DNA of 64,000 nucleotides from an uncultured Bacilli bacterium. Lineage in GTDB: Bacteria; Bacillota_I; Bacilli_A; RF39; UBA660. The DNA is taken from assembly GCA_934099115.1 (NCBI GenBank), contig CAKOPK010000003.1, forward strand, positions 24,409-88,408. The letters run 5' to 3'. Position 1 is the first letter of the stretch. Each line of letters opens with the position of its first letter. The notes under the pieces were generated by a model that saw nothing but the letters and a program-made list of their open reading frames with translations, had not been told where the DNA came from and did not search any database. Shown here one piece after another: positions 46,790-58,903 of the stretch. The position numbers and the translations under genes are program-made.

Positions 46790-46812
46790 AAAAAAAAGAA
46801 GGAAACCTTCTA
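46790..46812 (-). terminator. intrinsic terminator of htpG
   Basis: Minus strand AGAAGG-TTT-CCTTCT followed by TTTTTTTTT. Confidence 0.6.
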
Positions 46813-48687
46813 TTTTGCTAAGTATTTGCAAATTAAATTACTAATTAAAGTTGGGTCTGGAATATCTAAGCCTTCAATTAAACAAGCTTCTGCATATAAA
46901 ACCTTTGTATAATCTTGTAATTCTTCTAAATTCGTTTCATATAAAAGTTTTAATTTATCTGCGATTGGATGATTCTCATTGATTTCTAAAACTTTTTCTG
47001 CTTTTAAGCTATTATCACCAGGAATTTGTTTAAAAGCCTTCTCCATCTCTAAAGTAATACTTCCTGTACTAGATAAACATACTGGATGATTTTTTAATTC
47101 ATCTGTAAATTTTATTTCTTTAACATCAGGAATATATTCTAACATTTTAGCAAACATATCTTTAGCTTCTTCGTTTTTCTTTTTTAATTCTTCTGTTTCT
47201 GTATTAGAATTAGCTTCTGCATTAATATTTGTTATAGCATATCCTTCATATTCATTTAACATTTTAAGGGTAAATTCATCAATTTGATCCACACAGAATA
47301 AAATTTCATATTTATCTTTTAAAGCTTCTACTTTAGGCATGGTGCTTATCTTAGAAATAGACTCACCGCAAGCATAATAAATAGACTTTTGTTCATCTTT
47401 CATACGACTTACATATTCTTTTAAAGTAGTATATTTTCCATCATTAGAAGAATAAAACATAACAAGCTCTTGTAATTTTTCTTTATTCATTCCATAATTT
47501 TCATACATACCATATTTTAATTGTAAACCGAATGCTTGAAAGAATTTTTCATAATCCTCTCTTTTATTATCTCTTAGTTCTTCCAATTCTTTCTTAATTC
47601 TTGTCTCTAAAGATTTAGCAATGGTCTTTAAAACCCTATCTTGTTGTAAAGTTTCACGAGAAATATTTAATGATAAATCAGGACTATCAACTACACCCTT
47701 AACAAAAGAATAATAGTCTGGCAAAAGTTCACTGCATTTATCCATAATTAAAACTCCATTAGAATATAATTGTAAACCTTTTTCATACTCTTTTGTATAA
47801 TAATCATAAGGTGCTTGAGATGGAATATATAATAGCGAATTGTAACTTATTGCGCCCTCTACAGCATTATGTATATGAGCCATAGGAGTATCATAAAGAG
47901 AAAACTTATCTTGATAAAAAGTATTATATTCTTCTTCTGTTATTTTAGATTTATTACGTTTCCAAATGGGTACTAAACTATTAATAGTTTCTGTTTCTCT
48001 TACGGTTTCATATTCATCTTTATCATTTTCATTCTTTTTATCTTTTAAATGAGTATGTTCCACTTCCATTTTAATTGGATAAGTAATATAATCGCTATAT
48101 TTGCGAATTAACTCTTGAATTGTATAACTATCTAAGAAACGATCAAAATTCTCTTCAACATCTTCTTTAATAGTTAAAATAACATCCGTACCATAAGACT
48201 CTTTTTTAGCCTCACTTACAGTATAACCATCAACTCCAGTTGAAGTCCATTTATAGGCAACATCACTACCATATTTTTTAGATAAAACTTCTACTTTACT
48301 AGCTACCATAAATGATGAATAAAATCCAACTCCAAATTGTCCAATAATATCTATATCTTTTTTATATTCAAATTCTTTTTTAAAATCTTGAGAGCCACTT
48401 TTAGCAATAGTTCCTAAGTTATTTTCCAATTCTTCTTTAGACATACCGATACCATTATCGCTAACGGTTAAAGTACGATTTTCTTTATCAATACTTATAG
48501 AAATAGCAAATTCTTTTTTATTAACTTTGATATTTGCATCCGTTAAAGAATTGTAATGTAATTTATCAATTGCATCACTAGCATTTGAAATTAACTCCCT
48601 TAAAAATATTTCTTTATTCGTATAAATAGAATTAATCATTAAATCCATCAATTTCTTAGATTCTGCTTTAAATTCCTTTTTCTTCAT
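46810..48687 (-). CDS. htpG: molecular chaperone HtpG (Hsp90)
   Basis: 625 aa with the ELISNASDA and GQFGVGFYS GHKL ATPase motifs. Confidence 0.95.
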   Translation of the reverse strand: MKKKEFKAESKKLMDLMINSIYTNKEIFLRELISNASDAIDKLHYNSLTDANIKVNKKEFAISISIDKENRTLTVSDNGIGMSKEELENNLGTIAKSGSQDFKKEFEYKKDIDIIGQFGVGFYSSFMVASKVEVLSKKYGSDVAYKWTSTGVDGYTVSEAKKESYGTDVILTIKEDVEENFDRFLDSYTIQELIRKYSDYITYPIKMEVEHTHLKDKKNENDKDEYETVRETETINSLVPIWKRNKSKITEEEYNTFYQDKFSLYDTPMAHIHNAVEGAISYNSLLYIPSQAPYDYYTKEYEKGLQLYSNGVLIMDKCSELLPDYYSFVKGVVDSPDLSLNISRETLQQDRVLKTIAKSLETRIKKELEELRDNKREDYEKFFQAFGLQLKYGMYENYGMNKEKLQELVMFYSSNDGKYTTLKEYVSRMKDEQKSIYYACGESISKISTMPKVEALKDKYEILFCVDQIDEFTLKMLNEYEGYAITNINAEANSNTETEELKKKNEEAKDMFAKMLEYIPDVKEIKFTDELKNHPVCLSSTGSITLEMEKAFKQIPGDNSLKAEKVLEINENHPIADKLKLLYETNLEELQDYTKVLYAEACLIEGLDIPDPTLISNLICKYLAK

Positions 48688-48734: not shown

Positions 48735-48763
48735 AATATAACTCTAAAAATAGCACTTGTCAA
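48735..48763 (-). promoter_or_regulatory. sigma-A-type promoter of htpG
   Basis: Minus strand TTGACA (48763-48758), 17-nt spacer, TATATT (48740-48735). Confidence 0.5.
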
Positions 48764-48776
48764 CAGTAAGTGCTAA
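48750..48776 (-). promoter_or_regulatory. CIRCE-like inverted repeat (putative HrcA operator) overlapping the htpG -35
   Basis: Minus strand TTAGCACTT-ACTGTTGAC-AAGTGCTAT versus the CIRCE consensus TTAGCACTC-N9-GAGTGCTAA, with an exact 9-nt spacer. Confidence 0.55.
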
Positions 48777-48787
48777 AAAATAACAAA

Positions 48788-48810
48788 TTAAAAATAGTCC
48801 GAAGACTATT
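48788..48810 (-). terminator. intrinsic terminator of infC-rpmI-rplT
   Basis: Minus strand AATAGTC-TTCG-GACTATT followed by TTTAATTT. Overlaps the rplT stop. Confidence 0.55.
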
Positions 48811-48925
48811 TTAAATTACCGATTAATTCATCTTTTTTCATTGTAGAATAACCCTTAACGCCTTGTTCTTTAGCAATAGCTTTAAGTTCTGTTAAAGTCA
48901 TTTTACTATAATCTTTTTCTTCTTT
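48806..48925 (-). repeat. copy A of the shared rplT/rpsB 3'-end module
   Basis: A 96-nt core (about 48827-48922) differs at 4 positions from about 57953-58048. Confidence 0.85.
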
Positions 48926-49342
48926 TTTAGCAGTTTCTTTTTTTTCTACTTTTACTTCTTTTTTAACTTCAGTTTTAACAGTTTTTCCATCTAAAGCAGC
49001 TTTTGAAACAACTACTAATTCTGTAAATGCAGCTGGATTATCAATTGCAAGTTCACTTAACATCTTACGATTAATTTCAATACCAGCTTTAGATAAACCA
49101 TTCATAAATTTAGAATAACTGATCTCATTTGCTCTACAAGCAGCATTAATTCTTGTTATCCATAATTTTCTGAAGTTTCTCTTATTTGCTTTTCTATCTC
49201 TATAAGCATAAGCTCCACTATGGAATAATTGTTCTTGAGCTGTCTTATATAATCTATGTTTACTACCAAAGTAACCTTTAGCTTCTTTTAATACTTTTCT
49301 GCGACGATTTTTAGACACAGAACCACCTTTAACTCTTGTCAT
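48806..49342 (-). CDS. rplT: 50S ribosomal protein L20 with a roughly 60-aa C-terminal extension
   Basis: L20 core ([26 protein letters not shown]...) followed by a K/E-rich linker and ...[36 protein letters not shown]. Confidence 0.9.
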
Positions 49343-50100: not shown

Positions 50101-50235
50101 GCACCTCCATAATTAAAAAGGTAGAATACTTCTATTCCACCTAAACCTTATATTTTTTATTCATATATTTGGCTTTTTACCTATAGATATTCTCTATCAG
50201 GTGGAATAAAATTCGCTTTCCTTTTTCAATTTCTT
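50101..50235 (-). promoter_or_regulatory. L20-leader-type attenuator upstream of infC
   Basis: Minus strand terminator GGTGGAATA-GAAG-TATTCTACC followed by TTTTT (50141-50113). The upstream segment TATTCCACCT (50208-50199) can pair with AGGTGGAATA as an alternative helix. Confidence 0.6.
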
Positions 50236-50239
50236 TATC

Positions 50240-50268
50240 ATTATATAATTAATATATGTATTTGTCAA
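50240..50268 (-). promoter_or_regulatory. consensus sigma-A promoter of the infC operon
   Basis: Minus strand TTGACA (50268-50263), 17-nt spacer, TATAAT (50245-50240). Confidence 0.7.
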
Positions 50269-57931: not shown

Positions 57932-58050
57932 TTACTTTAAATTTGTAATAATTTCATCTTTTTTCATTGTAGAATAACCTTTAACTCCTTGTTCCTTAGC
58001 AATAGTTTTAAGTTCTGTTAAAGTCATTTTACTATAATCTTTTTCTTCTA
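57932..58050 (-). repeat. copy B of the shared rplT/rpsB 3'-end module
   Basis: See copy A. 92 of 96 nt are identical by eye. Confidence 0.85.
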
Positions 58051-58903
58051 CTTTTTCTTCTTTTTCTACAACTTTTAGAGTCTCTTTTCTTTCTCCACGT
58101 TTATCATTTTTCTTAAATGATTTTCTTTCAGTTTTCTCAGTTTTATCAACGATAGGTTCTTTAATTACTTCATCCATAGTTTTTACTTTTTTATCTTCTT
58201 CAGTAACATAATCAACCATCTCTAATCCATGAGCTTCACAAATAGCATTATTTAAAACACCTAATAATACTTTAACGCTTCTTACTGCATCATCATTTCC
58301 TGGAATAACAAAATCAACATCATCAGGGTCACAATTTGTATCAACTACTCCAAATACTGGAATATTTAATCTTCTTGCTTCTCTAATAGCATTAATTTCT
58401 TTCTTAGGATCAACAATAATTAAAGCATTAGGTAATTTGTTCATTTCTCGAATACCTGATAAAATCTTATTTAATTTTTCATATTCTTTCTTTAAACCAA
58501 TTACTTCTTTTTTAGGTAAAACATCAAATTTACCATCTTTTTCCATATTTTCAATTTCTTCAAGTCTCTTAACTCTTCTTCTGATTGTACGGAAATTAGT
58601 TAAAGTTCCACCTAACCAACGTTCAGTAACGTAGTAAGAATTACTTCTTTCAGCTTCTTCTCTAGCAGCTTCTCCTGCTTGTTTTTTAGTCCCTACAAAT
58701 AAGAAAGTTCCACCATTATCAGCAATAGCTTTTACCTCAGCGTAAGCTTCCTCTAATTTTTTTGTAGTTTTTTCAAGATCGATAATATAAATATCTTCTC
58801 TAGTACCAAAAATGTACTCTTTCATTTTAGGATTCCATCTTTTAGTTTGATGTCCAAAATGAACTCCTGCTTCTAATAAATAACTCATAGAAACAACGGC
58901 CAT
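57932..58903 (-). CDS. rpsB: 30S ribosomal protein S2 with a roughly 85-aa C-terminal extension
   Basis: S2 core ([19 protein letters not shown]...) then a K/E-rich linker and ...[36 protein letters not shown]. Confidence 0.95.

Follow-up and report, generated by a model that had tools for sequence, protein, structure and literature searches.

The ribosomal proteins bL20 and uS2 encoded in the window (the whole stretch of 64,000 nucleotides that was analysed) both end in a small domain of the Rho_N/SAP/HeH clan, held on a charged, low-complexity linker, and this architecture recurs across a large branch of the Bacilli, where a folded domain that probably binds nucleic acid is attached by long tethers to both ribosomal subunits and is also carried by FtsH. 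That bL20 and uS2 are genuinely fused to a domain of this fold class we regard as close to certain, and the conservation of the domain, its distribution, and its homogenisation at the DNA level are likewise shown. The fuller account proposed here, in which the tails would act as tethered low-specificity nucleic-acid-binding modules, with a conserved domain, a drifting linker, and gene conversion between the copies, is given a probability of about 0.5.

The anatomy of the two proteins and the positions of neighbouring elements are listed in Table 1. Both proteins match their own ribosomal families over the full length of the profile, with the core of L20 matching Pfam Ribosomal_L20 (PF00453; 155.8 bits) over residues 3–109 (profile positions 1–107 of 107), and the core of S2 matching Ribosomal_S2 (PF00318; 322.5 bits) over residues 9–223 (profile positions 1–215 of 216). 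The gene orders are the usual ones, with rplT downstream of infC and rpmI (infC-rpmI-rplT) and rpsB upstream of tsf (rpsB-tsf). The interval 48806–48990 comprises the rplT stop codon and the L20 extension beyond about residue 118. The original prediction described both proteins as lengthened by a linker and a terminal domain, and the ORF list and Pfam matches bear out the lengths (178 aa for L20 and 323 aa for S2) as well as the anatomy. Its further claim, that a near-identical tail sits on one large-subunit and one small-subunit protein, also holds, with 33 of the 36 residues identical between the L20 and S2 tails. In a six-frame regular-expression scan of the whole 1.07-Mb assembly (a metagenome-type draft of 27% G+C in 35 contigs, with 91% completeness), the tail motif is found in two genes only, rplT and rpsB.

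Table 1. Positions of the tail-bearing genes, their linkers and terminal domains, and nearby regulatory elements in the window.
Feature	Position	Strand	Basis
rplT, ribosomal protein bL20, 178 aa	48806..49342	-	ORF list; stop codon TAG at 48806-48808
L20 linker, residues 120-142, disordered, K/E-rich (23 residues of K/E/V/T)	48917..48985	-	AlphaFold pLDDT <50 at residues 124-142
L20 Rho_N/HeH tail, residues 143-178	48809..48916	-	Pfam Rho_N 42.1 bits at residues 146-174
rpsB, ribosomal protein uS2, 323 aa	57932..58903	-	ORF list
S2 linker, residues 229-287, ~59 residues, mixed-charge, low-complexity, 14 K and 13 E	58043..58219	-	Sequence and composition
S2 Rho_N/HeH tail, residues 288-323	57935..58042	-	Pfam Rho_N 37.3 bits at residues 291-320
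Hairpin AATAGTC-TTCG-GACTATT with a T run behind it, resembling an intrinsic terminator and overlapping the stop codon of rplT	48790..48810	-	Read from the sequence
Weak full-length match to the L20 leader (RF00558)	50107..50224	-	24.1 bits against a gathering threshold of 58.7; model positions 1-127 of 127

The surroundings of rplT contain several candidate regulatory elements. The terminator-like hairpin at the end of the gene receives no call in a consensus scan owing to its short stem. The match to the L20 leader (E = 0.0094 in a search of 281 bases) sits between a perfect sigma-70-type promoter, TTGACA-17-TATAAT (50240–50268), and infC, and ends in a terminator-like hairpin (50119–50142); at gathering thresholds Rfam returns tRNAs only in the window, with the L20 leader appearing solely as this weak match. 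The element is probably a divergent L20-responsive attenuator. On the other side of rplT, a CIRCE-like inverted repeat (TTAGCACTT-N9-AAGTGCTA; 48751–48776, minus strand) lies just upstream of htpG (46810–48687) and over a TTGACA-17-TATATT promoter (48735–48763, minus strand), which suggests that htpG is under HrcA control.

Both ribosomal tails exceed the Pfam gathering cut-off for Rho_N (PF07498; 24.9 bits) with the scores given in Table 1, whilst SAP (PF02037; cut-off 23.9 bits) and HeH/LEM (PF12949; cut-off 28.9 bits) are weaker matches of the same clan. The SAP profile yields 18.7 and 14.6 bits for the full-length L20 and S2 proteins, and 24.6 and 21.3 bits for the respective isolated tails. 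The L20 tail of this genome reaches 13.0 bits with HeH/LEM, under the threshold, which is passed by the tails of relatives, among them Culicoidibacter L20 (33.7 bits) and a trigger factor (29.9 bits). When PDB sequences are searched with a profile of 31 tails, the best match is the SAP domain of Ku70 (7.6e-8), with the N-terminus of Mycobacterium tuberculosis Rho (3e-7) and the Rho N-termini of two further species also matched. In a related genome that possesses Rho as well as a tailed L20, the tail shares 62% identity with the N-terminus of Rho over 26 residues.

The predicted structures are consistent with these profile matches. AlphaFold places helices at residues 150–160 and 170–177 of L20 with a pLDDT of about 90, and the L20 tail modelled alone forms a helix-loop-helix with a pLDDT of 83.6, so that the predicted fold has the succession of helix, extended loop, and helix that characterises Rho_N. 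Foldseek ranks the N-terminal domain of E. coli Rho first (TM 0.76, rmsd 1.5–1.7 Å over 36 columns, with a non-significant E-value of at least 0.8), and the SAP domains of Tho1, FAN1, and 3'hExo next, again with E-values that are not significant, the query domain being so short. The Rho_N/HeH relationship originally proposed is upheld by the Pfam scores above cut-off, the PDB profile matches to Rho and the Ku70 SAP domain, and the top Foldseek ranks. Judged by profile and by model, the tail is a true Rho_N-type helix-extended-helix domain of the Rho_N/SAP/HeH clan and, by sequence, homologous to the N-terminal subdomain of Bacillota Rho.

When the whole assembly is scanned with Rho_N, three proteins match: L20, S2, and, at its C-terminus, FtsH, which is encoded on contig C1. 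The tail of FtsH contains MNLTELRETAKEKGIKGYTKMTKEELEEKL and scores 25.8 bits, barely above the Pfam threshold, with the domain placed almost directly after the protease domain and no long linker between them. None of these tails is Rho, as all three are the C-terminal ends of L20, S2, and FtsH, with neither an OB fold nor a RecA-type ATPase following. Rho itself is absent, with Rho_RNA_bind (PF07497) giving no above-threshold match in the whole genome (best 13.6 bits), and no multi-domain ribosomal protein S1 was found in the assembly at its 91% completeness. The S1-domain matches that are present (contigs C6, C8, C9, and C16 of this genome, G000) comprise frames of 714, 735, and 730 aa, a 120-aa single-domain protein, and NusA, the last of which accounts for the 378-aa match.

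The comparison within the order rests on the best 80 related loci, which come from uncultured gut "Bacilli" or "Tenericutes" MAGs, include Mycoplasma sp. CAG:776 and CAG:956, Firmicutes bacterium CAG:582, and Candidatus Ventrenecus, and belong to what we take to be the GTDB order RF39. The tail is present on 78 of the 81 L20 genes of these loci, and in the remaining three the HeH domain is replaced by a KKTTAKK-type, histone-H1-like basic tail. These three loci (L072, L075, and L084, Mycoplasma sp. CAG:956 being among their sources) carry a KKTTAKK/KKTATK repeat. All 120 best database matches combine PF07498 with PF00453; one 293-aa L20 relative, 56% identical (P0005), is annotated with PF12452 in addition to these two. 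Across the 78 related L20 proteins the linker measures 0–38 aa, with a median of 22, and consists of 33% K and 22% E.

At the level of whole genomes, the domain is found in 150 of the 151 members of the order, in open frames of three size classes corresponding to L20 (about 170–210 aa), S2 (300–390 aa), and FtsH (620–675 aa). Three copies are present in 83 genomes, two in 44, and one in 18, with the single remaining copy, where its carrier is identifiable, being that of S2. A fourth carrier in the order was considered and rejected, the five genomes with four Rho_N matches having a fourth that is below threshold. In one genome (G002) L20 is 126 aa long and has lost the tail, and the existence of lineages without it shows the tail to be dispensable on L20.

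In genome searches, alignment coverage underestimates tails that lie behind long linkers, as with an Acholeplasma L20 whose alignment stopped at residue 147 although the tail is present, and a tail-profile search was therefore used for the census of the class. In a class sample of 200 genomes the profile matches 108, with all or nearly all sampled members positive in families f1, f4, f6, f9, f11, f13, f14, f16, f17, f20, and f24, and zero matches in families f12, f15, f18, and f23. Exact-sequence look-ups identify Acholeplasma laidlawii uS2 (ABX81756.1, 342 aa) and Candidatus Izimaplasma HR1 bL20 as named carriers, and bL20 of Haloplasma contractile and of Culicoidibacter larvae are further ones. 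The bL20 of Acholeplasma hippikon (rplT at L095, G267; 271 aa) has two tandem HeH-like modules after a long PAK-rich linker. With regard to genome reduction, genomes of 3.4–3.6 Mb are found among the carriers. The narrow lineage specificity that had been predicted does not stand, as many families of Bacilli carry the tail, cultured Acholeplasma included.

Matches of the class search that had no explanation were retrieved and scanned with Pfam for other carriers. In relatives the C-terminal tail is also found on an S1 homologue with four S1 domains (L197, G207), on trigger factor (L204, G312), on an EAL-domain membrane protein (L198, G282), on proteins of ~106 aa that start with MSFWSKLFGKKKK, an amphipathic basic N-terminus, and continue with an acidic linker (L199, L201, and L203), on polytopic membrane proteins with a coiled-coil spacer (L200, L206, and L207), on an N-terminally anchored protein (L205), and on S2 of a TGA-recoded small-genome family. 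The carriers are of two kinds, ribosome-bound proteins and membrane-anchored proteins with a cytoplasmic C-terminus. The idea of a lineage-specific ribosome decoration consequently survives in part: the tail does decorate L20 and S2, but with FtsH and, in relatives, S1, trigger factor, and membrane proteins among its carriers it is not restricted to the ribosome. The suggested role in hibernation or sporulation finds no support here. A wider tail-profile search, of 1.84 billion representative proteins, returned 12,081 matches, the best 150 of which are mostly multi-copy repeat proteins and gene fragments, and give no usable census of architectures.

The similarity of the two ribosomal tails extends to their DNA. 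For 34 tail codons each from L20 and S2 of 29 genomes of the order, DNA identity between the two tails is 0.783 within genomes compared with 0.706 in shuffled pairings, and none of 5000 shuffles reaches 0.783, a figure that is not a probability, as the genomes are related to one another and the permutation test overstates their independence. Codon identity at identical residues is likewise 0.76 within genomes and 0.67 between genomes. The effect is episodic, with nine of the 29 genomes, from several genera, at a tail DNA identity of at least 0.84 and others at background. In the present genome the S2 and L20 tails are about 90% identical in DNA (0.90 over 34 codons), and the S2 tail is closer to the L20 tails of relatives (0.84) than to their S2 tails (0.79), which suggests that the transfer ran from L20 into S2. 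Gene conversion, by these sequence comparisons, homogenises the tails of L20 and S2 from time to time. No homogenisation is seen in two Acholeplasma genomes, in which the tails follow their own genes.

Several genomes of the order have rplT on the strand of rpsB and ~1 kb away from it (G016:C5, G047:C13, G036:C13, G077:C13, G097:C28, G105:C21, G106:C3, and others), whilst in the present genome the two are 9 kb apart. Homogenised tails occur in four of seven genomes with adjacent rplT and rpsB, compared with five of 22 in which the genes are apart or on different contigs, numbers that are too small to support a conclusion.

The most likely function of the tail is that of a low-specificity nucleic-acid binder on a flexible tether, with RNA a more likely ligand than DNA; that RNA is the main ligand is put forward tentatively, at a little under even odds. 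RNA binding is favoured by data on RHON1 of Arabidopsis, the 40-aa C-terminal Rho-N motif of which, taken alone, shifts RNAs in gel assays, fragments of 16S and 23S rRNA among them (PMC3458557). It is favoured, furthermore, by the basic character of the tails (mean net charge of about +3) with a nearly invariant M-K-K before helix 2, by the replacement of the HeH domain with a histone-H1-like polycationic tail in some L20 proteins, and by the presence of S1 and trigger factor among the carriers. In Rho, however, RNA is contacted mainly through the OB fold and not the N-terminal subdomain, which counts against an RNA ligand. The usual ligand of SAP and HeH relatives is double-stranded DNA, and that of LEM is a protein, BAF, so that membership of the clan does not in itself fix the ligand.

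The positions of the two ribosomal anchors suggest where such binders could act. The uS2 protein lies on the solvent face of the 30S subunit, adjoining the mRNA exit and the docking site of S1, and the C-terminal domain of bL20 is surface-exposed on the 50S subunit. On tethers of 23 and 59 residues, the domains of L20 and S2 would sample several nanometres around their anchor points, and the two tails could not meet on one ribosome. The domain borne by S2 would thus sweep the region beside the mRNA exit, the domain borne by L20 the surface of the 50S subunit, and the domains of the membrane-borne carriers, FtsH among them, the membrane's inner face, so that mRNA, rRNA, or ribosomes (or else nucleoid DNA) would become locally enriched in each place. 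The domain is kept by purifying selection, and the linker varies freely in length and sequence, as seen in its variation from the short forms of the order's L20 proteins to the far longer, PAK-rich forms found elsewhere.

A different ligand would be double-stranded, AT-rich nucleoid DNA, in which case the tails would tether ribosomes and membrane to the chromosome as a bacterial counterpart of the LEM/HeH tethers of the inner nuclear membrane. The Ku70 SAP domain as the best PDB sequence match of the tail profile, the position of the isolated L20 tail just over the SAP threshold (24.6 against 23.9 bits), and the passing of the HeH/LEM threshold by the Culicoidibacter L20 (33.7 bits) and trigger factor (29.9 bits) tails of relatives are all consistent with this, as are the many carriers that are membrane proteins with cytoplasmic C-termini (FtsH, the polytopic proteins, and the 106-aa proteins with an amphipathic basic N-terminus) and the 27% G+C of the genome. 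We nevertheless consider it unlikely, as S1 and trigger factor fit an RNA or ribosome ligand better than DNA, and in the sole experimental work on a C-terminal Rho-N motif the ligand was single-stranded RNA (PMC3458557).

Protein-protein docking is less probable again, whether the tails dock on one common partner, such as RNA polymerase or NusA, in the manner of the Rho N-terminal domain and the transcription complex, or bind each other and so cluster ribosomes or dock them on FtsH. A domain shared by both subunits, FtsH, trigger factor, and S1 would suit a common address tag, the clan member LEM does bind a protein, and the similarity of tails within a genome may partly reflect co-evolution with one partner. 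However, synonymous codons likewise agree more often within genomes (0.76 against 0.67), which points to exchange of DNA and not to selection on the protein, and in Acholeplasma the L20 and S2 tails have diverged from each other, each following its own gene. The histone-H1-like basic replacement tails also fit a polyanion ligand better than protein docking, and no candidate partner protein for the tail was found.

The membrane-anchored carriers make a nucleoid- or ribosome-tethering network attractive, if unproven. In its strongest form, which is speculative and in our estimation improbable, the tail would serve as the shared handle of a tethering system that extends through the whole cell in Bacilli of the Acholeplasma, Izimaplasma, and RF39 types, with the copies on the ribosome (bL20, uS2, bS1, and trigger factor) and those at the membrane (FtsH, the polytopic proteins, and the small amphipathic anchor protein) all gripping one polymer. 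Were this true, ribosomes, membrane, and chromosome would be physically coupled via mRNA and rRNA or via nucleoid DNA, in a bacterial analogue of the LEM/HeH tethers of the nuclear envelope or of the ribosome receptors of the ER.

It is very unlikely that the tail compensates for a lost factor, either as the relic of a decayed rho gene or as a mini-S1 that captures mRNA on S2. Neither Rho nor an S1 homologue is found in this genome, or in any of the 20 sampled genomes of its family, and S2 is the textbook docking site of S1 beside the mRNA exit. In family f4, however, Rho coexists with a tailed L20 and a tailed S1, an S1 homologue occurs together with a tailed S2 in Acholeplasma (Acholeplasmataceae, 15 of 15) and in an Izimaplasma-like family (13 of 13), and many families have neither Rho nor the tail. 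Compensation for the loss of Rho was rejected, as Rho is rare in the class sample (Rho_RNA_bind in seven of 200 genomes, four of the seven belonging to f4) and yet the Rho-bearing f4 is also tailed. Replacement of S1 as the origin of the tail was rejected on the coexistence of S1 with tailed S2, and on the one lineage that tails S1 itself. As the tail coexists with Rho or S1, and is absent from many Rho-less families, it predates both losses and does not track them, and the loss of Rho or S1 does not account for its distribution. In a weaker version, the S2 tail may have gained importance after S1 was lost.

Although the source assembly, in 35 contigs and 91% complete, is a draft of metagenome type, it is extremely improbable that the extensions are artefacts of a misread stop codon or a chimeric assembly, or neutral appendages, given that the architecture is shared by hundreds of independent assemblies, closed genomes of cultured species included, that the domain is conserved whereas the linker is not, and that the sequencing error at the stop codons envisaged in the original prediction is ruled out by conservation of the tail, which is present in 150 of the order's 151 genomes, on 78 of the 81 related L20 genes, and in all 120 best database matches.

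The domain family is already known, the architecture is annotated automatically in databases, and lineage-specific extensions of ribosomal proteins are a known kind of feature; in a literature search, no paper describing Rho_N tails on bL20, uS2, or FtsH was found. What is new here are the negative tests on the loss of Rho and S1, the named culturable carriers, the wider set of carriers, the histone-H1-like replacements, and the quantified test of gene conversion. The tail domain lies outside every current model of the bacterial ribosome, and the same architecture in the culturable Acholeplasma laidlawii makes the question of its function directly testable. Should the tails tether mRNA, ribosomes, or DNA, they would have implications for the spatial organisation of translation in small cells without Rho or S1, and if they have no measurable effect, they would provide a clean example of a mobile protein module that has spread, and been homogenised, among essential genes.

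Of the closest known systems, the N-terminal helical subdomain of Rho (PF07498; for instance PDB 1a8v, 1pv4, and 7oqh) belongs to the same family by profile and predicted fold. In contrast to its counterpart in Rho, the tail described here occupies the C-terminus of ribosomal proteins and FtsH, where it stands by itself behind a disordered linker, with neither the OB-fold RNA-binding domain nor the ATPase, in a genome that has no Rho. The SAP domains of Ku70, Tho1, and FAN1, and the HeH/LEM domains found on proteins of the inner nuclear membrane, share the clan and the two-helix fold, and are often terminal on flexible linkers as nucleic-acid or chromatin tethers, membrane proteins included; these domains are, however, eukaryotic and mostly bind dsDNA or BAF, whereas the tails here score best on Rho_N. 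Xue and colleagues are said to have seen, in 2022, lineage-specific ribosomal-protein extensions in Mycoplasma pneumoniae ribosomes in situ. Like the present tails, these are long, in part disordered, and placed at the ends of ribosomal proteins in lineages related to Mollicutes; no folded domain common to the two subunits has been reported among them, however, and L20 is mostly tailless in the Mycoplasma-like families sampled here. RHON1 of Arabidopsis similarly carries a C-terminal Rho-N motif after a charged region on an otherwise unrelated protein (PMC3458557), although it is a chloroplast partner of RNase E in plants and not a ribosomal protein, and is likened to the tails by its motif. 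The homogenisation of the tails resembles conversion of the tufA/tufB type, in which two dispersed copies in a genome are episodically homogenised, visibly so at synonymous sites; in contrast to that type, a module of ~110 bases alone is exchanged here, inside two otherwise unrelated essential genes.
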